Source: Vampirovibrionaceae bacterium NZW_1234
GTDB lineage: Bacteria > Cyanobacteriota > Vampirovibrionia > Vampirovibrionales > JAGQHJ01
Length of the DNA: 64,000 nt
Assembly: GCA_041697335.1 (NCBI GenBank)
Contig: JBGUGD010000015.1
Span: 64,001 to 128,000 of the forward strand
Reading direction: 5' to 3'
Each line of letters starts with the position of its first letter. Position 1 is the stretch's first letter. Below the pieces are notes generated by a model. It had not been told where the DNA came from. It made no database searches and saw only the letters and a list, made by a program, of their open reading frames with translations. Shown piece after piece: positions 27,514-57,851 of the stretch. Position numbers and translations under genes: made by a program.

Positions 27514-27635
27514 CCCGCTTGGCTACGTATTGCTAAGTTGACTAGCACAAAAGTATCAAAACTGTTTTTAATGCTTATAGGTCATATAGGCATTATTTTT
27601 GAGTAAACCAACGCACAGGTTGGGGGTAATTGGAC

Positions 27636-28070
27636 ATGGCATTCGGGGTGAACCCGTCTATCTTCTCGTCGACACAGTCGACAGCATCATCATCGTCAAG
27701 CGCATCGACACCAACAGATGCGTCCAATACAGACACGACACAGAAACAGGATGATCGCACCTGGTATGACGAGTCTTATCGACGCTCTCTTGCCGACCAA
27801 GTGAGCCGTAATGAAACGGCGAAAACACAAATGACCAACACCCTAAACCAAGTCAAAGCGAAAATTCAGGAAAACAAAAACGCTGTATTTAGCTTATTAA
27901 ACACCACTCTGAATCCAACTGATCTGAGGCGGCTATTAGAAGAACGCCAAGGTCTACGAAGCCAGGAATATGTGCTGGATGCCAACATCATGTCGGCTCT
28001 GCAAAACATTCAGGGAGCGCAACTTTCTGCGGCAAAATACCTGATGACGCCATTAGACACCGTTGCTTAA
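27636..28070 (+). CDS. hypothetical protein, Ser/Thr-rich N-terminus plus coiled coil
   Basis: GGGGG RBS-like sequence; downstream terminator. Confidence 0.7.
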   Translation: MAFGVNPSIFSSTQSTASSSSSASTPTDASNTDTTQKQDDRTWYDESYRRSLADQVSRNETAKTQMTNTLNQVKAKIQENKNAVFSLLNTTLNPTDLRRLLEERQGLRSQEYVLDANIMSALQNIQGAQLSAAKYLMTPLDTVA

Positions 28071-28235: not shown

Positions 28236-28265
28236 AAGGCCCTTCTTAAGGGCCTTTTTTCTTTT
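28236..28265 (+). terminator. Rho-independent terminator
   Basis: AAGGCCCTT/AAGGGCCTT stem plus T-run. Confidence 0.75.
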
Positions 28266-29155
28266 GTCTTCTTGTTTTAGCCCTCATGCTTTTTATCAGG
28301 ACCTGCCCTTTTAAAAGAGAGAATAATCCGCCCTATTGTGGGGGTAGCCTAAGAGTCAGATGAAAAGCAGCGCTCTGGATGAATGATCCGGGTAAACCTT
28401 GGCTATCGTCTTACCAGAAGTTATGAAAAGTAACACTCGCCGAAGGCACATTCCTTTCCAAACTCGCTCTCTCTCCCAATCGTTCAATGTAGTCCTGGAT
28501 AATGCCTCCGTTGAGGGGTGGCGTTATAGCCATTCAGCAGCAAACGCTCGACAAAGGATCGACAAAAACGCGAGCTTATCCGTCATTTTGACGTCGGTTG
28601 CGCGTCGTTTTCGCGATGTCTTTAAATTGAAAAACCTTTAGTAGAAAGGTTTTTCAGGTTTTTCGCTTCAGAATCCCGAGGCGATCGACGCGGTTTGTCG
28701 TACTTTGTCGATCTGGCCTAAATGTCCACAAGGCCTTAATACGTTTTTCGAGATGTTGAGTCTTGATTTCATAGAATGTCTGCTGGCGTGTACAACAAGC
28801 TTTTTATAGGTATTATTCCCACATTGATTAATTCTTAAACCTCTTATGTACTGAAAACTCCTTCCTAGCCCTATAATTTGCCATAATGATCCAGCTTTAA
28901 AGTTGTCCTCATCAACGATAGCGTCAGCAAGGCACTCGCTTTTTTGGAAAACAAACCCTTTCTTTTACTCTTCTGCCTTGAATCTGCCCAACACCCATGT
29001 ATCTAAAAGCCCTTATACACATTGTTTCGAGCATTATCTTTATACTTTCTTAAGGACTCTTAAAAAAAACCATCGAAAAATAATTCTGATTTTATTTATT
29101 GTTATTATAAAAATATCAAGTGTGAGGTTACTAATTAAACGTAGGTGGGTATGCT

Positions 29156-30010
29156 ATGGTTGCACAATTAAATCGTCAAACTAGTGAAGTACAAACGCTG
29201 CAAGCACGGAACCGTGAAATTGCATTCGTGGAATTACCGGCTGCAGAGCGTGAAATGGAAAATAATCCGCTTGCCATGATTATGGGCGGTAATGAAGTTG
29301 AATCCCTTGAAACCGAACTGGCTGGCAACATCAGTCGCCTGGCTGAAGAATTCGACGAAGATGATGCCTTTGGTACCGGTGAAGGCGGTGGCCTCGGCGG
29401 TGGCGCTAATGGTAGCGGCGGCCTGGGTGGTGGTTCTGCTGCAGGCGGCTTAGGCGGTGGCGCAACGTCTGCTGGTGGATTACAGCCCGGCAGTGCCGGC
29501 GGTATGGGAAGCAGTCAACCTGCACCAACAAAAGATCCCTTTGTAGTTGATACCACTGGTGACGGTCAAGTGACTCTGCTCGGCGACGAAGCTGGAAAAG
29601 TTAAAATTAACGATGGCTCCGGCGAAGTTGAAGTCAACAAATGGGAAGATGACATGTTGTTTGCCGATAAGAATAACGACGGTCAATTCCAAGCGGATGA
29701 AATTCAGAGCACGAAAGATCCGGAAGCTATCAAGAAGTCCGGTTATGACAAAAATAACGATGGCAAACTTGACGAAGACGAAGCTAAAGCCGGCAATCTG
29801 AAATTTGTATCCTTCGATAAGAGCGGCAAAGAGCAAGTTCGTGGCTTTGGCGAGGAAGGCCCCGGAGGTAAACCGGCCATTAAATCCTTTGGCTACGAAT
29901 TTAACAGTGGCGCTCAGAACGGTACGGCGGGCGTTATAGAAAAAGGTCGTGGTACGGCTGAATTCGCTAACGGCAAAAAAGCTCAAACCATTAACTTCGA
30001 CTTTGCATAA
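29156..30010 (+). CDS. Gly-rich protein with C-terminal Ca-binding, FrpC self-processing-module-like domain (paralog 1)
   Basis: D127-P128 in KDPFVVDTTGDG; DKNNDG loops; highly similar to the next two genes. Confidence 0.75.
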   Translation: MVAQLNRQTSEVQTLQARNREIAFVELPAAEREMENNPLAMIMGGNEVESLETELAGNISRLAEEFDEDDAFGTGEGGGLGGGANGSGGLGGGSAAGGLGGGATSAGGLQPGSAGGMGSSQPAPTKDPFVVDTTGDGQVTLLGDEAGKVKINDGSGEVEVNKWEDDMLFADKNNDGQFQADEIQSTKDPEAIKKSGYDKNNDGKLDEDEAKAGNLKFVSFDKSGKEQVRGFGEEGPGGKPAIKSFGYEFNSGAQNGTAGVIEKGRGTAEFANGKKAQTINFDFA

Positions 30011-30060
30011 TCAAAATAGGTCGATAAAAAACGTTATTTCTTTGAATTACCGTTAACCTG

Positions 30061-30093
30061 ACAGGTGGTCACTGCGTGACCACCTGTTTGTTT
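30061..30093 (+). terminator. terminator after paralog 1
   Basis: 12-bp perfect stem ACAGGTGGTCAC/GTGACCACCTGT plus TTGTTT. Confidence 0.75.
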
Positions 30094-30349
30094 TAAAAAT
30101 TCAGTCAGCCTGGTGCGACAGACACTTTCGCGATATTTTTTTGAGCCAATTGTGAATCCTGTATCTGCTAAAAAGCCTTCTTACTATTAATAGCGCTGTC
30201 TTTGATCCGAATGTCAGCTTCGCCTATAACATATCCAACGGATTATTAAATCTAAAAAAAATCCGCCCATTTTAAATTGTTTTTAAAAACTAATGTTACT
30301 CTAAAAATAGATGTACTGGTAGGGCAATGTTGTAAAGGTTGGGTTAGTT

Positions 30350-31318
30350 ATGGTCGCAAATAATCTTGTGTCACTAAATCGTGGCGATAATGCCACACGT
30401 TTAAGACAACTCCAGGATCAGCAACGCGAGGTTGTTGATCAACTAAAATCGATTGATCAAAAACCACTTGGGTTTCTTGAGAAGCCTCGCTTGGAGCGCC
30501 AAAATCAAGAATTAACACAGCAAATAGAAGAACTGGGTGGCAAGCCTGTTGGCGCTGACGAAAAAGATAACGACTTGTTCAATGCCGGGGGCCTGCAAGC
30601 AGGCAATAATAACGGTGGCGGAGGACTTGCGCCAACCGGTAATTCTGCGGGCGGTTTAAATCCAGGAGGCGCAGGTGGAATGCAGCCGGCTGGTGCAGGT
30701 GGAATGCAACCAGGCACTGCCGTCCACACCAAGGTCAACCCTGATGGAACCACTGAAACCACCACAACGCCTGCTGGTCAGCCTGGCCCTTGGAAAGGTG
30801 ACCCCTTTGCCGTGGATTCCGATGGCGATGGCAAGTTCACCATGCTGGGCGATGACAAAGGCAAAGTCACGATTGACGATGGTACCGGCAATGGGCCCAT
30901 GGAAGTCAACAAATGGAAAGACGACATGTTGTTCCAGGATAAAAACGGCGACGGGAAGTTCCAGGCCGACGAAATTCAAAACACGAAAGATCCGGAGTCC
31001 ATTAAAAAGTCCGGATTCGATAAAAATAACGATGGCAAAATTGATCAGGAGGAAGCCAAGGCGGGCAACCTTAAGTTTGTTTCTTACGATGACAATGGAA
31101 AAGAACAAGTTCGAGGTTTTGGTGAGGAAGGCCCCGGCGGCAAACCCGGTATCAAATCCTTTGGCTACAATCTTGATAAAAAAGCACAACAAGGAACCCA
31201 GGGTATCGAAGAAAAAGGCAGAGCTACCGCAGAATTTACAAACGGTAAAACGGCTGATACCATTAACTTCGACTTTGTGGTCGACCCCTCGACCCAACGA
31301 AGAAGACAATCGGCATAA
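30350..31318 (+). CDS. Gly-rich protein with SPM-like domain (paralog 2)
   Basis: D151-P152 in WKGDPFAVDSDGDG; DKNGDG, DKNNDG. Confidence 0.75.
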   Translation: MVANNLVSLNRGDNATRLRQLQDQQREVVDQLKSIDQKPLGFLEKPRLERQNQELTQQIEELGGKPVGADEKDNDLFNAGGLQAGNNNGGGGLAPTGNSAGGLNPGGAGGMQPAGAGGMQPGTAVHTKVNPDGTTETTTTPAGQPGPWKGDPFAVDSDGDGKFTMLGDDKGKVTIDDGTGNGPMEVNKWKDDMLFQDKNGDGKFQADEIQNTKDPESIKKSGFDKNNDGKIDQEEAKAGNLKFVSYDDNGKEQVRGFGEEGPGGKPGIKSFGYNLDKKAQQGTQGIEEKGRATAEFTNGKTADTINFDFVVDPSTQRRRQSA

Positions 31319-31348
31319 GTTTCCCCTCATATCCTTTCCACACCGATT

Positions 31349-31387
31349 GAGGCCTCTCCTGCTCCCAAGCATTGTAGGAGAGGCCTC
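31349..31387. terminator. hairpin after paralog 2
   Basis: GAGGCCTCTCCT/AGGAGAGGCCTC 12-bp stem; no clear U-tract. Confidence 0.5.
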
Positions 31388-31526
31388 TGCCAATAAGACG
31401 GAAATACAGGATATTTGCTTTTTTAGCCGATTATTAAAAAATCCCATCGGTTTTTGATTGTTTATTATTAAGTTTGATATTATTGATAGTAGGGTATAGG
31501 TAGTAACGCTTAGGTGGGTCTCGTAC

Positions 31527-32492
31527 ATGGTCACATTAGGAAACGCTGACGCGCTTGGCAATCGCGAACGCATTCGTGATTTACAAGTAGAAAACGACGG
31601 TCTTCAACAACAAATTACACAACAGGAAAACAACCCCTTGGGGCAGATCTTCCAAATGATTGGCCTTGGGGGTGATGGCGGGGATCTTGAACAACTTCAA
31701 GGCCAACTCCAAAATAACATGGATGAAATTGACGGACTCGGAGGCAACGGCCAATACTTTAGCGATGGTGGTAGCGGTGTCCAAGGTGGTGCCCAACCCA
31801 CCAATGCAGGTGGAGGAGGCGTGGCTCCCGGCCAAGGAGCTGGTGGTATGGCTCCTGGCCAAGGTGCCGGTGGTCTCCAAGGTGGTGGCAGCGGTGCTGG
31901 AGGCTTAGCCGTTCACACCAGAGTAAACCCAGATGGCACATCGGAAACCGTCACGACTCCAGCCGGTCAACCCGGCCCCTGGAAAGGCGATCCTTTTGCC
32001 GTCGATTCTGATGGTGACGGTAAGATGACTTTGCTCGGCGATGATAAAGGCAAGGTCCAAATCGATGATGGCACTGGCAATGGCCCTATCAACGTCAACA
32101 AATGGAAAGACGACATGCTATTTGAAGACAAGAACAAAGACGGCAAATTCCAGGCCGATGAAATCCAGAGTACCAAGGATCCAGAAGCCATTAAAAAATC
32201 CGGATTTGATAAAAATAACGATGGTAAGCTCGATGAAGCTGAAGCCAAGGCGGGCAACCTCAAATTTGTTTCTTACGATGACAATGGAAAAGAACAGGTT
32301 CGGGGCTTTGGTGAGGAAGGCCCCGGTGGAAAGCCTGGCATAAAAACCTTCGGCTATAACCTGAATAAACCAGGACAAACCGGAACCGATGGCATCCAGG
32401 AAAAAGGACGCTCGACGGCAGAGTTCACCAATGGCAAAACTGCCGATACCATTAACTTTGACTTTGTCCCGAAAAAAAGCCAAGCCTCATAA
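31527..32492 (+). CDS. Gly-rich protein with SPM-like domain (paralog 3)
   Basis: D155-P156 in WKGDPFAVDSDGDG; DKNKDG, DKNNDG. Confidence 0.75.
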   Translation: MVTLGNADALGNRERIRDLQVENDGLQQQITQQENNPLGQIFQMIGLGGDGGDLEQLQGQLQNNMDEIDGLGGNGQYFSDGGSGVQGGAQPTNAGGGGVAPGQGAGGMAPGQGAGGLQGGGSGAGGLAVHTRVNPDGTSETVTTPAGQPGPWKGDPFAVDSDGDGKMTLLGDDKGKVQIDDGTGNGPINVNKWKDDMLFEDKNKDGKFQADEIQSTKDPEAIKKSGFDKNNDGKLDEAEAKAGNLKFVSYDDNGKEQVRGFGEEGPGGKPGIKTFGYNLNKPGQTGTDGIQEKGRSTAEFTNGKTADTINFDFVPKKSQAS

Positions 32493-32558
32493 GGTGAAAA
32501 AATCACAGATACCCCTCGTTAGTTAACACAACACACTGTATCCATAACGCATCATGTT

Positions 32559-32598
32559 AAAATCCCCGCAACGCATGCCAGCGGGGATTTTGACTTTC
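32559..32598. terminator. bidirectional terminator
   Basis: AAAATCCCCGC/GCGGGGATTTT between convergent genes. Confidence 0.7.
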
Positions 32599-32614: not shown

Positions 32615-33382
32615 TTAATATCCGTATGAATCGCTGTCTTGAGCCACTTCTCTCAAGATATCGAGATTGGTTATTAATATCTTGCCGCCCCGGAGGTATT
32701 TAATACACTGATATTGCTTCTTCAATCGACTGATTATTCGGACGGATTCCTCATAGGCAATGCCCGTCATACTGGCAATGTAATCATGAGGTAATTGAAT
32801 TTTTAATTGCAGACCTTCGGGTGTTTCTTCATATCCATCACGTTTCAGATGATACAAAATAATCTTTGCTACTCGGGCTTCGCTCTTCTTGACGACCTGA
32901 TTATGCGTTGCATAGTTAAACCAGAGCACTTCTCCCATGGCACAAAGCATATCCAAAGCAATCTCGGGAGACTGAGAGGTCAGAGTTCGAAAGCTTTCGC
33001 CGTTGAGATAAAGCACCGTGGTATCCGTAAGCGCTTCCGCTGAGAACGGATGAGGTTGATTCGTCAAGGCTCCGGTAACCCCAAAAAACTCACCGGTAGA
33101 CGCCAAGCGAACAATGGTACTCTCACCATCCGAAGAATATTTCACCAGCTTGACACAGCCTTCAACAACAAAGTAAATCCGAGACCCCGTCTTGGAAGGT
33201 AAATCCATTTCATAGAAAATGACCGTCTCTTTGCGGTAGGTCGTTTCATAAAACAAAGCCCGAGCCTGCTGCAATTCTTCGTTGGTCAACGACTTAAAGA
33301 GCGGAATTGCTCTCAGCTTTTGAACAATGTCGATCTTATCCGGCTGACTGACGGGCAGGGTGGAAATCATGAGGCTTTCCAA
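32615..33382 (-). CDS. Crp/Fnr family transcriptional regulator
   Basis: cNMP-binding domain (IYFVVEGCVKL, GEFFG) plus HTH (IASMTGIAYEESVRIISRL). Confidence 0.9.
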   Translation of the reverse strand: MESLMISTLPVSQPDKIDIVQKLRAIPLFKSLTNEELQQARALFYETTYRKETVIFYEMDLPSKTGSRIYFVVEGCVKLVKYSSDGESTIVRLASTGEFFGVTGALTNQPHPFSAEALTDTTVLYLNGESFRTLTSQSPEIALDMLCAMGEVLWFNYATHNQVVKKSEARVAKIILYHLKRDGYEETPEGLQLKIQLPHDYIASMTGIAYEESVRIISRLKKQYQCIKYLRGGKILITNLDILREVAQDSDSYGY

Positions 33383-34882: not shown

Positions 34883-35749
34883 CTAAACCACCTGTGGGGG
34901 TGGTTGAAGAATAGAAGAATCCTTATCTTTCGGATCGTCAGGGTTTGAGTTTTGCGGCCTTGGATACTCCATGACAGGTGATGACGACTTTGGCATGGGA
35001 CGAAACTCAACCTGGGATACTCGCCGCGCAAAAACTTTTGTACCCGATTCGAGATTTTGAAATACCCGGGTTTTACGTTCTTCTGAAGCTGAACGCTCCT
35101 CCCAGCCAGACCCGATTAAAATTAACCGGTTGTTGCCACTCCCCCCCTGGATTTTTATACGATTGGCTTTTGCCGGATAGATCACAAACTCATCATCGCC
35201 TTTCTCGCCATCGAGTAAGACTTCTTGATGGTCGCCCACGACAGAAAAGCGATCATTGCCAGGGCCGCCATTATAGATCCCCTTTGTCCGATGTCCGCCA
35301 ATACAAATATAATCGTTTCCTTTACCGGCCATCACATTATTCTGATTTTGATAACCAAAGCAGATAAATTCATCGTTTCCATCACCACCAATAAACGTAT
35401 TGTGATGTTTGGCCCCATTGCAAAAGAACATATCCCGTTTTTCTCCGCCATGGAAGAAGTGGTTCCCTCGTTCGCTGCTTTTGTTGATATTCAAAGTGTT
35501 TTCAGCCTGTTTAGCGCCAAGAAACACATTAATATTGCCATTGCCGAAAACATCCATCTGGTTGTGAACGCCGCGTCCATGATATTGAAGAACATTTTGG
35601 TCGCCTTCAACCCGAATAAAGTTATACTGTCCCTCTCCGTGGAATTCGCGCGTCACAGCCCTTGCCCCATATGGGATTTCATACGTTGCAAACCTGGACG
35701 AATCCACATTCGTAATGAAAGACGTTGAATGAGACACAATAAAACCCAA
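34883..35749 (-). CDS. RTX/hemolysin-type Ca-binding repeat protein
   Basis: GGDGND, AGKGND, GGPGND, GEKGDD, GGSGNN repeats. Confidence 0.75.
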   Translation of the reverse strand: MGFIVSHSTSFITNVDSSRFATYEIPYGARAVTREFHGEGQYNFIRVEGDQNVLQYHGRGVHNQMDVFGNGNINVFLGAKQAENTLNINKSSERGNHFFHGGEKRDMFFCNGAKHHNTFIGGDGNDEFICFGYQNQNNVMAGKGNDYICIGGHRTKGIYNGGPGNDRFSVVGDHQEVLLDGEKGDDEFVIYPAKANRIKIQGGSGNNRLILIGSGWEERSASEERKTRVFQNLESGTKVFARRVSQVEFRPMPKSSSPVMEYPRPQNSNPDDPKDKDSSILQPPPQVV

Positions 35750-52102: not shown

Positions 52103-52309
52103 CGTAAATATACTCCCCAAAATTACTCACTCCAATTTAGGTTTCAAATTTACCACAAACAATCTCATTGACAAGCCCTTTGCCCTTCAGGGCAATTTAT
52201 AAAGCGCAATATTTTCAGGGGTAAAACGCAATTTTATACAGAGGTTAGACTTGATTGCGTCAGTGACTAACACCCATAGATCACGTAGGACACAAAGCAG
52301 GTGCGCGCG

Positions 52310-53299
52310 ATGCGAATTTGCTCTCTACCTCCCTTCAAACCGTCTTCATCTAACACAACTCGCTTCGGATGGCATAAACGGCAACCACCCCAAGGTTGGC
52401 GCTTTGAACTGTCATCGGATCACTTTGCCAACCCGGAGACATTAACCTTAAAACCCGAGGTGATTCAGCGCATTGCGGGCACCCTCATTCGAGACACCCT
52501 GGAAAAGCCCGGCTTTGCCTTTATTCCCAACCTTCATCAGTTCACAAATTCGGCTGAAGCTGCATGGCAGTTTCAAAAGACATTGCTTCACGATGTTTAT
52601 CGAATCGCCGAGAAGGCATGGGGACTAGACACTGTCGAGTACCGGCTCGGTGACGTGGTGATTGTTGATCGGGATGCCCAAGGCACAGTAGGCAATCGCG
52701 GAGGCAAGGGAATTTCATCTCTCCACTGGGATGGTGGCATCGACCAGCTGGTCTCATTTCTGTATCAAACCCGAAATCTGCGGGGCGGACTGCCAATGGT
52801 AGGCGATGTCATTCAATACCTTGTCGACAACCATCACACCGCCGGCCTGAGAACCTTGAGTGATTCCGATCCGCGTTATGTCCTCAGGGCTGAATCCCTC
52901 TTGAAAGAGCCTCATCCACGTCCCTCACAATCCAAAACACCGGGATTATTATCCCGCCTGGCCCGGTTCAAAAATCCGGTCCACCCGCTGCAACCCTACC
53001 ATTGGATCATTGATGATCCAGCATTTAGCCAATCGGCCTTTCCCATGGTCATTGTCAACAACCGACGTGAAGACGGTTTGACACACACCGGGACGGCAGT
53101 GAAAAAGCAGGACGAAAATCAACCTGCTGCTCGCGTGTTACGCCAGGTCTTTATTCAAACCGACTTGATCCCTGATCAGAAAATTATTCTGGTCGGGCCC
53201 CCGCCCAATGCACTGGAAAAAACGTTAGTGCCGGAATCCTTAAGCCATAACTTTGACGACCTTCCCGATCAGGCGACTGAACACCATCGCAAGGAATAA
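52310..53299 (+). CDS. hypothetical protein with RFG leader; possible 2OG-Fe(II)/TauD-like fold
   Basis: TTRFG; LHWDG (HxD) and VIVNNR...TH. Confidence 0.6.
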   Translation: MRICSLPPFKPSSSNTTRFGWHKRQPPQGWRFELSSDHFANPETLTLKPEVIQRIAGTLIRDTLEKPGFAFIPNLHQFTNSAEAAWQFQKTLLHDVYRIAEKAWGLDTVEYRLGDVVIVDRDAQGTVGNRGGKGISSLHWDGGIDQLVSFLYQTRNLRGGLPMVGDVIQYLVDNHHTAGLRTLSDSDPRYVLRAESLLKEPHPRPSQSKTPGLLSRLARFKNPVHPLQPYHWIIDDPAFSQSAFPMVIVNNRREDGLTHTGTAVKKQDENQPAARVLRQVFIQTDLIPDQKIILVGPPPNALEKTLVPESLSHNFDDLPDQATEHHRKE

Positions 53300-53503
53300 T
53301 TTTTTTGTTGCCTTCCTCTTGACAACGCATGTATCTGCGGTAATAATGAAGACCCTCGTTTAAACTTAGATTGCAAAGAGATTTGCCCCTCCCATGAAAT
53401 TTACCGTAATCAACGTAACTGCAATGATGATGTGCCCGATGCTCCGCCAGGAGGATCGGAACGAGTTGCGCTGTTAAAACCACGGTAACCCCAATAAAGC
53501 GAC

Positions 53504-53550
53504 AGCAAACCGCCGACCTCCCCCACTGAGGTCGGCGGTTTGCTTTTGTC
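53504..53550 (+). terminator. strong terminator closing a short orphan transcript
   Basis: 17-bp perfect stem 53504-53520/53528-53544 with T-rich tail. Confidence 0.75.
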
Positions 53551-53609
53551 CTCATCTTGTCCCTCTACACTATGTTGTCCACTGCTTTCCCAAAAAAAGG
53601 TTCAAGCCC

Positions 53610-54899
53610 ATGTCCACCCCCACTCCACAGCTAGCACCCCCAGCCCACCAGAGGCCCCGCTTTGGCGGTATCTTCGGCAAGGAAGCCATCCAGGGCCTGA
53701 TTGTGGATACCTTAGGCATCCTGGGTCCAAAACTGGTCGTTGCTCGGGGAAGCTTGAACCGCACCGAAGAATGGGTGCTCGAGGGGTTGGAAGACATTGT
53801 GTTCTACTTTACCGTGCCCGCTGTGGGGCTCTACGGCTTTTCCAAGCTTTTCCAGTCTCAACTAAAAACGCTGGGCACCAAAATTTCCTCGGTGGCCTTG
53901 GGGAAAGCCCTGCCCCCGGCGTTATTGAAAAATCGTTTTGTGTTGGGAGCCAAAACGGGAACCCTGCTGGCCACCATTGCGGTGGCCGCAGGGATGGAAT
54001 TTCTGGTGCCTCATGTGCGCAATTTCATTACTGCCAAAGCCTACAATGCCAAAAATTTTACGGCGGTGGCCAATCTGGAAGCCGCCCGCTCCACGGTCAA
54101 AGCCGGTGAGTCTGATCCTGTGGAGAAAGCCAAATCCCGGATTTTACCCGTTGCTCTCAGTGTGGCCGGTCTCGTCGGATTGGCCTTCTGCTTACCCAAA
54201 CTGGTGGCCAAAAGCAGCGCCTGGCAGAAAGCGGCCCAGACCTTTACCAAATACGTAGATTTTGGCTCCAGCAGCCCCTTTGATATGTCCAAACCCATTC
54301 TGGCCATTTTGGCACTCGTCGGACTAGGCGGCTACTTGGATGCCACCCGGGATAAACTCGAATTAAAAGAAGTCGCAACCCGTGTGGCACTTTTTACCAT
54401 TCCCTATTATTTGTTTGGGAAGGAATTGGCCGGAAACCTTCTGGGACGATTGATCCAAAACCAGCATGTCAAACTCAACGGCAAATCGGTGGCCATTAAA
54501 AGCCTTGTCCCTTTTATTAATCCCAAGCTGCCCAAATCATCGTTCCTAGATTTCAACCAACTGGTCAGCAATACCCATGTGGTTCAGACCCTGGATAAAT
54601 TAAAACTCCCCGCCAGTGTCAAATCAGCCATTGTGGGCAAACATACCTTTATTGGCTACGCCCGGTTTATTTTAAGTGCCCTGGTTGTCGGCGTTGTGGC
54701 AAATCTAGTGGCTTTTCATCAGACCAAGCAACGCCATCAGGAGGCTCAAAAAGCCAACGCCACAAAAGAAAGTCACACCAATTTTACCTTCCAACCCATT
54801 CTGGCAGATCCGTTAAAAGGCCCTCATCAACATCTCCCCTTTGTATACCCCACTCACGCCAACCAGCCTGCGTTTGCCAGAACCTCTTTCCGAATCTAA
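53610..54899 (+). CDS. multi-pass membrane protein with RFGG leader
   Basis: Several hydrophobic segments; MSTPTPQLAPPAHQRPRFGG. Confidence 0.75.
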   Translation: MSTPTPQLAPPAHQRPRFGGIFGKEAIQGLIVDTLGILGPKLVVARGSLNRTEEWVLEGLEDIVFYFTVPAVGLYGFSKLFQSQLKTLGTKISSVALGKALPPALLKNRFVLGAKTGTLLATIAVAAGMEFLVPHVRNFITAKAYNAKNFTAVANLEAARSTVKAGESDPVEKAKSRILPVALSVAGLVGLAFCLPKLVAKSSAWQKAAQTFTKYVDFGSSSPFDMSKPILAILALVGLGGYLDATRDKLELKEVATRVALFTIPYYLFGKELAGNLLGRLIQNQHVKLNGKSVAIKSLVPFINPKLPKSSFLDFNQLVSNTHVVQTLDKLKLPASVKSAIVGKHTFIGYARFILSALVVGVVANLVAFHQTKQRHQEAQKANATKESHTNFTFQPILADPLKGPHQHLPFVYPTHANQPAFARTSFRI

Positions 54900-54977
54900 T
54901 GCCGTCATGACATCAAGCTATCCTTCATGCAGACGCGTTTGCCCCCGACGCCCCGTTTGAACATCAATACACCCTTT

Positions 54978-55032
54978 GTAACGATTCAGACATAACCTAT
55001 CACAACAAAAGCTAAAGATTGTTTTTATATTT
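54978..55032 (+). promoter_or_regulatory. conserved upstream element, copy 2
   Basis: GTAACGATT-N11-TATCA-N11-AAAGATTGTTTTTATATTT. Confidence 0.7.
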
Positions 55033-55068
55033 TTGAAGAGAGTAAGGAAATAGAAGAGGTGATTTCAC

Positions 55069-55320
55069 ATGAGTTGGATTTTAAGTTTTTCATCGCCAAA
55101 CCCCATGAATGCAGGGCCTGCCCCTGCTAGTGAGCCTGCAGGGATGGCGAATACTGAGCCGTTCCCGGAATTTCCCGATTTTAACAATCCACCCAATGGT
55201 TTACCTGTGCCGCCGGTGTTTGACATGGGTCAGGAGACTTATCAGCCCAACTATCAGTTTAACCTCCTGATGCCGGTTGATCGCCAACAGCTTTGGAGCC
55301 TTCGCCCAGTCTTTGCCTAA
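55069..55320 (+). CDS. small Pro-rich protein paralogous to the N-terminus of the next gene
   Basis: SFSSPNPM.AG...EP.GMA shared; GAGGTG RBS. Confidence 0.6.
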   Translation: MSWILSFSSPNPMNAGPAPASEPAGMANTEPFPEFPDFNNPPNGLPVPPVFDMGQETYQPNYQFNLLMPVDRQQLWSLRPVFA

Positions 55321-55351
55321 AGAGCTTGTTTTGAAATCATTTCAACCGACT

Positions 55352-55406
55352 GTAACGATTTTGACAAGATGTATCACAACAAAATCCTAATATTGTTTTT
55401 ATATTT
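55352..55406 (+). promoter_or_regulatory. conserved upstream element, copy 3
   Basis: GTAACGATT-N11-TATCA-N11-TAATATTGTTTTTATATTT. Confidence 0.7.
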
Positions 55407-55515
55407 TTAGAGTAGTTATCCATCGTACTTGGTCTCGCACAGCCCCGCCCATCATCTGGCGGTCGGCTTCACGTGCCAAATTGATGAGTTAGGAATAAGA
55501 AAGAGGTACACCCGC

Positions 55516-56697
55516 ATGGATGTTGCATCAAATTTTACGAGTTTTTCATCGCCAAATCCAATGATTGCAGGCCTACCTCCTGCCCGCCCAACCCCTGAGC
55601 CTCCGGGCATGGCCATTGGATTAATCGCACCTGATCCGGATCCCATGCCGATGGGCCTTCCTGCCCCGCCTTGGGGATGGCCAAGCCCACCTACGTTCCC
55701 ACCTCCACCCTCTTTCCCCCCCATTCCGGAGCCCCCGATTTCATACCCGCCCATTCCGCAACCCCCCAAGCCACCCATGCCCCCGAAGCCGCCAATCCCC
55801 CCTATTGGCCCGCCAGGTGGCACCATCCAAAACGGCCAGTTTATTCCTTCTTTTGAATTGTGCTTGGCCGTCCAGCGGGAAAAAGATCCCAAAAAGCGTG
55901 CCTTACTTGTTGAAAAAGCCATCTTTGGTGCAGATATTCCCAATGATGCCAATAAAAAGCGTGAAGCCATCAACAAGCTCTTCGGTATCAACATCAAGAG
56001 CGGCCCCAATAAAAACAAGCAAGCGGCAGCGCTATTTGACAAGATTATCAATGAAACAACAACCAAACTCTTCAATGACAAGAAGTGTGGTTGCGCCCCC
56101 ATTGATTTCTCAGGCTACAAGAAAACCGCCCAAGGCATCATTAAAGTCGCCTCCCCCTTGGTACTGGATCTCAACGGCGACGGCGTGCGGATGTCCAGTC
56201 GTGAAGTCAAATTTGACGCCGATGCCGATGGCCGAAAAGATACCATCAATGACATTTCTGAAGGTGATGGCGTCTTGGTCCTTGATACCAACAAGAACGG
56301 CAAGGCCGGCGAAAACGGCCGAGAAGTTCTGGGCGACCTGACCGACCTCGATGGCGACGGCAAAGCCGATGGCTATAAAGACGGCTATGAAGCCCTGAAA
56401 GCTCTCGTGAGCAAGGCCGCTCAGCGTGGTCTGGTTAACGAGGACGACGTCCTGGATGCTACGGAGTTGGCAACCTTAGAGCGTGAATACGGTCTGAAGA
56501 TTAAGACCGGTAGCCTCAATGGCACCGCCAAATCTCTGAGCGAGGTCGGTGTCACCGAGATTCGACTGTCCTCCGGGGCCAAGTCAACTCAAACCAATTT
56601 CGACGAGCTCGGCAATGACCTGATGACTCAGGAAGGTGCTGTGGCCACCGTCAATGGCGAAACCCGCGAATATGCGGACATCTTCTTCCAAGTGTAA
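55516..56697 (+). CDS. Pro-rich protein with C-terminal FrpC-SPM-like Ca-binding domain (Ser-Pro variant)
   Basis: SPLVLDLNGDG, FDADADG, DGVLVLDTNKNG, EVLGD, DGYEAL, SLSEVGV. Confidence 0.8.
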   Translation: MDVASNFTSFSSPNPMIAGLPPARPTPEPPGMAIGLIAPDPDPMPMGLPAPPWGWPSPPTFPPPPSFPPIPEPPISYPPIPQPPKPPMPPKPPIPPIGPPGGTIQNGQFIPSFELCLAVQREKDPKKRALLVEKAIFGADIPNDANKKREAINKLFGINIKSGPNKNKQAAALFDKIINETTTKLFNDKKCGCAPIDFSGYKKTAQGIIKVASPLVLDLNGDGVRMSSREVKFDADADGRKDTINDISEGDGVLVLDTNKNGKAGENGREVLGDLTDLDGDGKADGYKDGYEALKALVSKAAQRGLVNEDDVLDATELATLEREYGLKIKTGSLNGTAKSLSEVGVTEIRLSSGAKSTQTNFDELGNDLMTQEGAVATVNGETREYADIFFQV

Positions 56698-56721
56698 TTC
56701 GCCGTTATAACCCCGATTTCA

Positions 56722-56761
56722 TGTATCCCGCTGCTCCAGACATCCAGGGCAGCGGGATACA
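56722..56761. terminator. hairpin after the SPM-like gene
   Basis: TGTATCCCGCTGC/GCAGCGGGATACA 13-bp stem; weak U-tract. Confidence 0.5.
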
Positions 56762-56879
56762 CACGTCAAGACCGCCAATTAAATTACAAGTGTAACATTT
56801 TATTGCGTCACCATGGCATTTCAGCCCTCTTATGGTTTTATAAGGGGGTGTTGGTATATCAGGGACGAGGGCTCTATCG

Positions 56880-57851
56880 ATGATTCCGGTTTCCGGATAC
56901 GCAAACCTCTGGCCAATCAAAACTCCGGGGCAAGTTCGGATGCGAAGTGAAAGCCCGGTAAAAACACCGATGACCTTATCCTCCGTTCACGCCTCAGATA
57001 AAGCCGAGGCATTGAAGCGGATCGAAGCCCTCATAAAACCCTTGGTCTATGGGGTCGATCTGGATGCACTTTTGGCTCCTGAGCAAGCATTTAAAGTACA
57101 TCCGCAAGGAGGACGCTTGTGGTTTGAAAACCTGATAACAGCGAAGCCTACCGGGACTCGGGGCTTGTGTGATGATTTGGTGGCAAGCACCCTAATGCGG
57201 CTTCAACACGATCCGGCTATTCAAAAGCACTTTGAATTCCGAGTTGCACGAGGCTCCACTCCCTCTTTTTTTCCATACACCCTAAGGCATGCCGCGCACA
57301 CGTACTTGGTGGGTATCCCCAAAACCCCTGGGGAACAAACTCGAATTCTTCAGGAATTGGAACGCTGCCCCAGAAAGATTCCCACAGGATGCCTGATCCT
57401 TGATCCAAGCCTGAAACAATTGCACTGGGTTACGCCCAATTATTATCCGGACTCTCAAACTCCCAACTACTTTATTTGTGGCGCTTTACTATCCCCAGAG
57501 CGTTTTTTAACCGAGCACAATACACCTGGTCATCAGTTTGCCTTTTATCAAAAAACCTGGGAAACCCATCCCATTTTATTGGGGGATCTGACGTCCTTCG
57601 TTCCATCCAAAGCCTCTGGCTTAGCTCCTGAAAAGCGGCGCCTCCTGTATTTCACCCTGAAGCACTTGCCCACGCAAGCACCTGAATTTTCGCTGTGGTT
57701 ACAAGAACCCAGTGGCCAGTTGAAACGCAGTCCGGCCTTAAAGCAGCTTCTCGCCCAGCCCAAACTGCCCGTGGAAACCCAGAAACTGTCCCAATTTCTG
57801 AACAGACTCATTGGTGATCTCACGCCAAGGGCAAGCAGTATCTCTGCCTAA
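56880..57851 (+). CDS. hypothetical protein with a putative Cys-His-Asp (transglutaminase/papain-like) triad
   Basis: GLCDDL...HTYLV...ILDPS. Confidence 0.6.
   Translation: MIPVSGYANLWPIKTPGQVRMRSESPVKTPMTLSSVHASDKAEALKRIEALIKPLVYGVDLDALLAPEQAFKVHPQGGRLWFENLITAKPTGTRGLCDDLVASTLMRLQHDPAIQKHFEFRVARGSTPSFFPYTLRHAAHTYLVGIPKTPGEQTRILQELERCPRKIPTGCLILDPSLKQLHWVTPNYYPDSQTPNYFICGALLSPERFLTEHNTPGHQFAFYQKTWETHPILLGDLTSFVPSKASGLAPEKRRLLYFTLKHLPTQAPEFSLWLQEPSGQLKRSPALKQLLAQPKLPVETQKLSQFLNRLIGDLTPRASSISA

Follow-up and report, generated by a model that had tools for sequence, protein, structure and literature searches.

The 64,000-nucleotide stretch of Vampirovibrionaceae bacterium NZW_1234 analysed here (contig JBGUGD010000015.1, positions 64,001 to 128,000 of the forward strand; hereafter the window) carries three tandem open reading frames (ORFs) on the plus strand, at 29156-30010, 30350-31318 and 31527-32492, whose products of 284, 322 and 321 amino acids end in a domain that very probably belongs to the superfamily of the meningococcal protein FrpC's self-processing module (SPM) and adopts the SPM fold. 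A fourth paralog of the array, of 303 amino acids when counted from an upstream ATG, lies elsewhere in the genome on another contig (L003). The evidence for homology and fold is good; cleavage of these proteins at the Asp-Pro with which the domain opens, and covalent linking after it, are put forward as a hypothesis. The genes and the parts of their products are as follows:

29156..30010, plus strand: gene 1, 284 amino acids; N-terminal fragment 1-127 (helix-prone segment and Gly-rich linker), SPM-like domain P128-A284 at 29537-30007
29534-29536, plus strand: codon of D127 of gene 1, final residue of the N-terminal fragment
30350..31318, plus strand: gene 2, 322 amino acids; N-terminal fragment 1-151, SPM-like domain from P152 (30803) to about 31294
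30800-30802, plus strand: codon of D151 of gene 2, final residue of the N-terminal fragment
31527..32492, plus strand: gene 3, 321 amino acids; N-terminal fragment 1-155, SPM-like domain from 31992 to about 32474
31989-31991, plus strand: codon of D155 of gene 3, final residue of the N-terminal fragment

All four paralogous proteins are small and acidic and share one layout, in which a helix-prone segment at the N-terminus is followed by a flexible tether rich in Gly and then by a C-terminal domain of about 157-170 residues that stops 0-12 residues ahead of the stop codon. Each domain displays three Dx[DNT]xDG loops (D9-G14, D50-G55 and D77-G82 in the numbering of the gene 2 domain, which is used throughout and to which 147 is added for protein numbering), and an Asp-Pro-Phe motif begins at residues 127, 151 and 155 of the products of genes 1, 2 and 3, respectively. 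The three window proteins contain no Cys and give no HemolysinCabind match (Pfam, E<=1) that would indicate RTX repeats, and the paralogs are predicted to lack a Sec/Tat signal peptide or transmembrane segment because none of their 19-residue windows is hydrophobic (maximum Kyte-Doolittle mean 0.45). In these respects (the three Asp-Pro positions, the three loops, and the want of Cys, signal peptide and RTX repeats) a first-pass annotation made from the letters of the window had read the genes correctly.

The paralogs match one another far beyond chance (E 8e-72 to 5e-102), with 73-87% identity over the C-terminal 160 or so residues among those of the window and far greater divergence at the N-termini, just as the same annotation had described for its three adjacent ORFs. 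Between paralogs, the proportion of nonsynonymous differences (pN) is 0.08-0.15 in the C-terminal domain and 0.36-0.55 in the N-terminal parts, with synonymous differences in the domain (pS, 0.70-0.80) being saturated. Saturated pS together with low pN points to ancient duplicates whose C-terminal domain is under strong purifying selection. The N-termini can nevertheless be aligned across the paralogs, with invariant M1, V2, L5, R18, P38-L39, L51 and F72, the shared positions including an M-V start, an Arg, an N-P-L motif and a Phe that precedes the Gly-rich tract, and so are homologous yet fast-evolving. Of the earlier suggestion of variable N-terminal payloads, the divergence stands, while the payloads are not unrelated to each other. 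A protein-atlas look-up with the N-terminal 150 residues gave no usable match.

Relationship of the C-terminal domain to the FrpC module

When 1.84 billion cluster representatives were scanned exhaustively by HMMER, using a profile of the four domains, 22 matches emerged at E<=1e-3, among which P0025 (profile 2-160 on residues 228-391), P0016 and P0007 were full-length and colinear. P0025 in turn matches the FrpC SPM chain 6sjw_A at E 8e-28, and pairwise BLASTP places a window domain on P0025 with 29% identity (E 3e-12), Asp-Pro over Asp-Pro. As a family set we used 97 full-length domains extracted from 120 listed of 1051 P0025 relatives. Comparison of the four-paralog alignment with these 97 domains using hhalign gave a probability of 97.2%, an E-value of 8.5e-11 and a score of 58 across 162 colinear columns. 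The corresponding controls scored 18.4 for the reversed template, at most 17.4 for ten column shuffles, and 20-35 for ten shuffles of 15-column blocks in which the Ca2+ loops were intact and merely reordered. As the score drops on block shuffling, the signal resides in the order of the elements and not merely in Asp/Gly loops. An independent alignment with MAFFT likewise put the window domain in register with the SPM family.

The search was also run in reverse, with a hidden Markov model (HMM) built from the 97 foreign domains alone against 13,257 six-frame ORFs (>=80 amino acids) of the genome. This recovered paralog 2 at E 6.9e-7 over its full length (HMM 10-178 on open-frame residues 159-322) and paralog 3 at E 6.5e-5. 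The window domain is best described as a very distant SPM relative connected to the family by profile methods only. Closer relatives were sought at several scales: a word-indexed search of 5.8 billion proteins (177-564 amino acids) returned the four paralogs alone, an all-length HMM scan at E<=1e-30 returned only P0002, the window's own paralog, and the subfamily was not found in the 60 related genomes searched. It therefore appears to be an orphan, confined so far to one genome.

The SPM fold comprises two perpendicular beta-sheets and a helix-turn-helix, with the N- and C-terminal strands paired. An AlphaFold2 model computed from an alignment of the four paralogs plus 29 SPM-family proteins reached a predicted local distance difference test score (pLDDT) of 86.8 and a predicted template modelling score (pTM) of 0.84. 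Foldseek searches of the PDB with this model placed 6sjx and 6sjw at the top (E 1e-4, template modelling (TM) score 0.63-0.64), the next match having E 0.59 and a TM score of 0.15. Similarly, VIA-align against 48,161 chains returned 6sjw with Z 12.4 and a root-mean-square deviation (rmsd) of 3.3 A over 140 residues, followed by a next match at Z 3.1. The register runs from model residues 5-168 on 6sjw chain residues 1-174, setting Pro5 of the model on P415; in the model the first strand aligns with the N-terminal strand of 6sjw and the last with the C-terminal one. The model, in other words, accepts the window sequence confidently into the SPM fold. The first-pass annotation had judged by eye that the motif order follows that of the FrpC SPM and had suggested a profile comparison and AlphaFold plus Foldseek as checks; both the profile and the (partly circular) structural comparison agree with it, and the Asp-Pro of the window proteins aligns exactly with D414-P415 of FrpC.

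Residues around the Asp-Pro and the question of cleavage

In FrpC, Ca2+ site 1 is formed by D419, D421, D423 and G424 and completed by D456, three EF-hand-like loops span D462-E474, D499-D511 and D521-E532, and W451 and W519 form a T-shaped Trp pair (PMC7078468). The same study describes L475, G477, G491 and D579-L582 as a narrow port that shields the scissile bond, with D478 helping to bind a transient fifth Ca2+; cleavage is strongly reduced in the D478A mutant, is retained in D579N and is abolished in D579A. Much of this arrangement has a counterpart in the window domain:

D414-P415, scissile bond: D4-P5; kept, Asp-Pro-Phe in 4/4 paralogs
D419/D421/D423/G424, Ca2+ site 1: D9, D11, D13 and G14; kept at the same spacing, with Thr (paralog 1) or Asn (paralog 4) at position 11
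30815..30832, plus strand: gene 2 loop of site 1, D-S-D-G-D-G, the counterpart of FrpC D419-G424 and at the same distance from the Asp-Pro
D456, partner of site 1: D44, gene 2 codon 30920-30922, plus strand; kept
W451: W42; kept
D462-E474, Ca2+ site 2: D50-E61, gene 2 30938..30973, plus strand; canonical 12-residue EF-type loop DKNGDGKFQADE
D499-D511, Ca2+ site 3: D77-E88, gene 2 31019..31054, plus strand; canonical 12-residue EF-type loop DKNNDGKIDQEE
D579: N159, aligned by way of P0069; permissive, D579N FrpC being active

Loops 2 and 3 are invariant among the paralogs in having Asp or Asn at positions 1, 3 and 5 and Glu at position 12. The Asp-Pro itself is retained in 4/4 paralogs in spite of saturated pS, with the residue before the Asp varying (K, G, G, A), and directly upstream of the Asp lies the Gly-rich flexible stretch. 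In NeissLock constructs a flexible stretch at this place helps the anhydride to reach its targets (PMC7846742), and the split-NeissLock paper reports cleavage for every SPM homolog tested (PMC12538545); those homologs are much closer to FrpC than the window domains are. Because the motif survives saturating divergence, because site 1, W42, D44 and N159 around the bond are intact and because a tether adjoins the Asp, we consider self-cleavage of the window proteins plausible, with a likelihood a little short of even.

With about the same reserve we favour the following course of events. The Asp/Asn/Gly-rich domain would be unfolded in the low-Ca2+ cytosol, as in the FrpC SPM, and the proteins would be exported from the cell; the genome's type I system of ABC transporter, membrane fusion protein and outer membrane protein is not linked to the paralog genes. 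Extracellular Ca2+ would then fill site 1 (DxDGDG plus the distal Asp) and the two canonical EF-type loops, whereupon the domain would fold as an SPM beta-sandwich in which the first and last strands pair, a step that homology and the model support. The Asp side chain might next attack the strained Asp-Pro bond and release the domain. The Gly-rich tether would then end in an Asp anhydride, which could either hydrolyse or form an isopeptide bond with a nearby Lys.

Several observations weigh against this course of events. To begin with the relationship itself, local Pfam and NCBIfam searches of the window domain gave nothing beyond sub-threshold EF-hand, DUF7151 and XopAW-like noise, and searches of PDB sequences (phmmer with a single sequence, hmmsearch with the paralog profile) did not reach FrpC at E<=10, the matches being sub-threshold troponin/EF-hand and nanobody ones. 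The precomputed PF26745 label is missing from all four paralogs and present on 120/120 listed SPM-family proteins. In the reverse HMM search paralog 1 matched partially (E 3.6e-4, HMM positions 7-109) and paralog 4 was not listed. AlphaFold2 given the four paralogs alone yielded an unusable model (pLDDT 43.8), and the fold check is partly circular since the alignment behind the good model held SPM homologs and hence their covariation. As for export, no signal or linked secretion genes were found near the paralogs. With respect to the chemistry, the following positions of the FrpC SPM are altered or lacking:

W519: altered, to Tyr in three of the paralogs and to Phe in the other
D521-E532, Ca2+ site 4: D100-E112, 13 residues, non-canonical with Lys at position 5; degenerate
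ELFG-D478 segment (L475, G477, D478): deleted together with about 12 following residues, in a gap-rich and uncertain part of the alignment
G491: missing, Asp in its place, alignment uncertain

Across the 33 family domains of the Asp-Pro type, the F, G and G columns of the port are kept in 33/33, 31/33 and 33/33, respectively, and the window domains are without them; hence, as far as the uncertain alignment of this gap-rich region allows, the window domain seems not to hold the residue set that forms the port and the fifth Ca2+ site in FrpC. Furthermore, whereas Pro is found in 91/97 domains of the family set, the residue before it is Asp in 33, Ser in 36 and Ala in 12, so that the Asp is lacking in 64/97. 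The absence of the port loop, the degeneration of site 4 and the lack of the Asp in most family members speak against cleavage. The lack of Asp-Pro in 64/97 domains also implies that the fold serves some cleavage-independent function and does not by itself imply cleavage. The Asp-Pro appears to mark a subset of the family, in which the window proteins would be placed by this motif and not by the other hallmarks of the subset; a column comparison of Asp-Pro and non-Asp-Pro members did not clearly assign the window domains to either group.

These latter observations lend themselves to an alternative that we regard as a serious if tentative one, namely that an SPM fold is present and binds Ca2+ without any cleavage, the domain acting instead as a C-terminal module for Ca2+-dependent folding, export or anchoring, with the Asp inherited without a chemical role. 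Family members with Ser-Pro or Ala-Pro presumably serve as such a module, and of the genome's other SPM-like domains four begin with Ser-Pro and one with Thr-Pro, all but the latter being C-terminal, which suggests a shared non-cleavage function; the missing G477, D478 and G491 and the degenerate site 4 fit this picture. It accounts less readily for the persistence of the Asp-Pro in four old paralogs while the residues upstream of it vary, for the permissive Asn at the position of D579, and for the intact site 1 and equivalents of W451 and D456 beside the scissile bond. The uniform cleavage of homologs in the split-NeissLock paper (PMC12538545) also speaks against it, though again they are much nearer to FrpC.

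Should cleavage occur, the distribution of Lys may bear on the targets of the anhydride. The C-terminal domains of the four paralogs contain 18-25 Lys as against 2-5 Arg, and the N-terminal fragments contain one Lys in paralogs 1 and 3 (1-2 residues before the Asp), seven in paralog 2 and five in paralog 4. The fragments of genes 1 and 3 (29156-29536 and 31527-31991) are nearly Arg-only, with one Lys against five and four Arg. A further, improbable alternative extends the cleavage reading in that the cleaved paralogs would cross-link mutually through Lys, instead of to a foreign surface, and so build a covalent extracellular matrix or adhesive rich in Gly, the copies being gathered by their N-terminal helices. 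The many Lys of the domains are compatible with this, and a sole Lys so close to the Asp would limit self-cyclisation in paralogs 1 and 3; moreover, the four paralogs, taken to be co-regulated, share a conserved upstream element, and a fifth Asp-Pro SPM protein of the genome (on contig C34) likewise has a Gly/Asn-rich N-terminal half. FrpC is also said, in work of Osicka from 2004, to form linked oligomers in vitro. On the other hand, the Lys-bearing N-terminal fragments of paralogs 2 and 4 do not fit, and the proposal presupposes a cleavage that is itself hypothetical. Finally, it is very unlikely that the resemblance is convergent, with unrelated EF-hand, FG-GAP or dockerin-like Ca2+ loops happening to start at Asp-Pro, for although direct library matches are sub-threshold and EF-hand-like and the second-best representative match after P0002 is an FG-GAP repeat kinase (P0005, through the first 30 residues), the full-length colinear match takes in elements outside the loops (the Trp, both the DD-hydrophobic and the GI.S strand, and the hairpin at the C-terminus), is lost on reordering of blocks and recurs at full length in the reverse HMM search, and 6sjw is the sole structural match.

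Genomic setting and flanking elements

In addition to the paralogs, the genome encodes about six further, more canonical SPM-like domains, making about ten copies altogether:

55429..56697 of the window, plus strand: SPM-like ORF, 422 amino acids, Pro-rich N-terminal half, Ser-Pro start, domain running up to the stop codon; E 1.8e-18 in the reverse HMM search
Contig C37, 20673-23294, minus strand: 874-amino-acid open frame, Ser-Pro
Contig C34, 165144-166274, plus strand: 365 amino acids, RRDP start (Asp-Pro), Gly/Asn-rich repeat N-terminal half
Contig C9, 140338-141855 and 142102-143580, minus strand: tandem pair, Ser-Pro
Contig C7, 83467-84960, minus strand: Thr-Pro, 44-residue tail beyond the domain

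All of these except the C7 domain extend to the stop codon or to a few residues short of it, and RTX repeats follow none of them. They lie closer to the family consensus than the window domains (E 1e-50 to 3e-10, with C7 at just 2e-3), and the ORF at 55429-56697 has no local Pfam match. BLASTP of a window domain against the C37 and C34 proteins, one of the C9 genes and this window ORF gave weak matches (best E 1.9e-4); thus the window family did not branch off recently from any of those four proteins, and no local parent was found. Taken together, the copies make it seem that this lineage uses the SPM-like domain as a general C-terminal module. Around the Ser-Pro gene of the window, from 52301 to 57851, runs a series of ORFs without Pfam matches (332, 429, 422 and 323 amino acids), of which the 429-amino-acid one (53610-54899) looks by eye like a multi-pass membrane protein.

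The neighbours of the array are housekeeping or unrelated genes, coding for UvrA, PyrF, an amidase, a Crp-family regulator, a STAS protein, an M48 peptidase, RNR and Lon. The gene of the Crp-family regulator (32615-33382, minus strand) adjoins gene 3 and is convergent to it. Just 5' of the array lies an ORF of 146 amino acids (27630-28070, plus strand) with a Ser/Thr-rich N-terminus, a helix-prone remainder and no family match, with which a terminator-like hairpin at 28236-28256 is associated. HlyD and ABC_membrane matches in the genome are all distant from the paralogs, and its RTX and type I secretion loci are on contigs other than those that carry them. An apparent type I secretion cluster occupies the start of one such contig (C16:145-5718) and consists of an ORF with RTX repeats, HlyD, a 709-amino-acid ABC transporter and a TolC-like outer membrane efflux protein. 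Within the window, the ORF at 34883-35749 (minus strand, 288 amino acids) contains repeated GG/GK-x-G-N/D-D-x-F/Y motifs resembling RTX or beta-roll repeats; Pfam gives no match for it at E<=1e-3, and the HemolysinCabind search of the genome missed it.

The three genes are preceded by AT-rich regions, as had been noticed at first sight, with a G+C fraction of 0.34, 0.365 and 0.44 upstream of genes 1-3 as against 0.46-0.565 within genes. Alignment of the four upstream regions revealed, in the roughly 110 nucleotides before the start codon, blocks common to all paralogs, including TAGGTGGGT, which precedes the ATG, and a box rich in A. An 18-mer taken from this A-rich box has six matches in the 3.7-megabase genome at <=3 mismatches, three of them upstream of paralogs, as compared with one for the reversed-pattern control. 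Kept despite saturated synonymous sites, these blocks are candidates for a common promoter, operator or 5'-untranslated-region element. The earlier description also gave each gene a downstream hairpin; an inverted repeat does follow each, with that of gene 1 alone satisfying the terminator-scan criteria. The flanking elements are:

29036..29155, plus strand: 5' region of gene 1, with the A-rich box at 29058-29075 and Shine-Dalgarno-like TAGGTGGGT at 29142-29150; from the four-paralog alignment
30230..30349, plus strand: 5' region of gene 2, with the A-rich box at 30251-30268; conserved in the alignment of paralog upstream regions
31407..31526, plus strand: conserved 5' region of gene 3, carrying TAGGTGGGT ahead of the ATG and a promoter-like site (31454-31483)
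L003 2395-2500, minus strand: 5' region of paralog 4, with the conserved upstream blocks
30061..30087, plus strand: terminator-like hairpin after gene 1, with 12-nucleotide arms, a 3-nucleotide loop and a T-rich tail
31349..31387, plus strand: inverted repeat after gene 2, with 12-nucleotide arms 15 nucleotides apart; not called by the terminator scan
32556..32594, plus strand: inverted repeat after gene 3, with 14-nucleotide arms, separating gene 3 from the Crp-family gene that converges on it

DNA sequencing runs that contain this sequence are labelled as hot-spring or microbial-mat metagenomes, with rows of equal size being probably duplicate filings, and no RNA sequencing runs are among the listed ones. 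A Photo_RC gene was not found in the genome, which is 94.75% complete.

Comparison with known modules and significance

The window domain and the FrpC SPM are alike in size (about 160-177 residues), in starting at Asp-Pro with D-P-x-x-x-D-x-D-G-D-G spacing, in having site 1 with its distal Asp, two canonical EF-type loops and the W451 equivalent, and in the predicted fold (Z 12.4); at the position of D579 the window domain has Asn, a permissive residue in FrpC. They differ in sequence (about 18-29% identity) and in the features that the window domain has lost or altered, that is, the ELFG/D478 and G491 port loop, site 4 and the Trp that became Tyr or Phe. They also differ in context, with the window domain standing at the extreme C-terminus of proteins of 284-322 amino acids encoded in a tandem array of a non-pathogen, with neither RTX repeats nor a recognisable type I secretion setting. 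SPM-bearing proteins have been called a 'specific subclass of RTX proteins' (Kuban 2020, PMC7078468), and in such exoproteins RTX repeats and a type I secretion signal lie C-terminal to the SPM, which is not so in the window proteins. Nor are they alone in this, for 108/120 listed SPM-family proteins are without an RTX Pfam domain, though many are on short contigs and perhaps partial. Several of these database proteins (P0138, P0069, P0025 and P0141) resemble those of the window in being small, in having one SPM-type domain at or near the C-terminus and in some cases in starting at Asp-Pro, as in P0138, where a GH108/PG-binding N-terminal half precedes RRDP. They differ in being 40-55% identical to each other and in retaining the ELFG and WQD motifs, leaving the window proteins as outliers. 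The other SPM-like proteins of the genome are likewise nearer to the family consensus and mostly of the Ser-Pro or Thr-Pro type, and share with the window proteins the C-terminal placement of the domain, the lack of RTX repeats and, severally, the Asp-Pro and Gly-rich N-terminal half (C34) and the tandem arrangement (C9).

Two other Ca2+-binding modules were considered. The cleavage motif of the MIIA domain is GDPH, cut between Asp and Pro. In the MIIA/DUF1521 domains of NopE1 and Vibrio coralliilyticus VIC_001052, Ca2+ induces a disordered domain to fold and to cleave itself at an Asp-Pro bond (PMC6506597). MIIA cleaves inside the domain, whereas the Asp-Pro of the window proteins is at the very start of the domain, as in the SPM, within the motif [KGA]-D-P-F. 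Kinship to DUF1521/MIIA, which had been raised at the outset, was rejected, with no Pfam match at E<=1 and no GDPH motif. Pairs of EF-hands of the calmodulin or troponin C type share with the window domain two 12-residue DxNxDGxxxxxE loops and align with it weakly in Pfam and PDB searches, but a beta-sandwich is predicted to surround these loops instead of a four-helix EF lobe. A canonical EF-hand pair (Pfam EF-hand_1/7) was rejected, the best score being 20.8 bits against a cut-off of 25.4.

The literature that our searches brought up treats the SPM only within RTX proteins or as an engineering tool, and no description of RTX-free SPM proteins was found in those searches. To that extent the earlier impression that stand-alone arrays are undescribed stands; it does not extend to the databases, with their many SPM-family proteins that lack an RTX domain, and the SPM domain is already catalogued, since Pfam family PF26745 exists. 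The window proteins represent a known module in a new form that is very divergent and free of RTX repeats.

Few natural modules make a reactive anhydride on demand as the SPM does. NeissLock ligation and self-excising purification tags are built on it, and studies of it have so far been confined to large RTX proteins of pathogens. Were the window domain inactive, the SPM fold would be a general C-terminal Ca2+ module, present in about ten copies in this genome, and the view of the Asp-Pro subset would alter. The most far-reaching possibility, and one that we think unlikely, is that these are minimal RTX-free 'clip-and-link' proteins, in which an SPM of about 157 residues without a port loop generates the Ca2+-triggered Asp anhydride and four co-regulated paralogs weld their Gly-rich, coiled-coil-bearing tethers to each other or to the surface of a partner cell. 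This would amount to an extracellular covalent glue in a non-photosynthetic cyanobacterial relative from microbial mats and would mean that the anhydride chemistry can do with a smaller part of the module than one would gather from the structure of FrpC. More generally, if the window domain is active, this shorter and divergent module would define the parts of the fold that the chemistry requires, could provide a smaller engineering tag, and would place Ca2+-triggered covalent attachment also in environmental bacteria, outside toxins.

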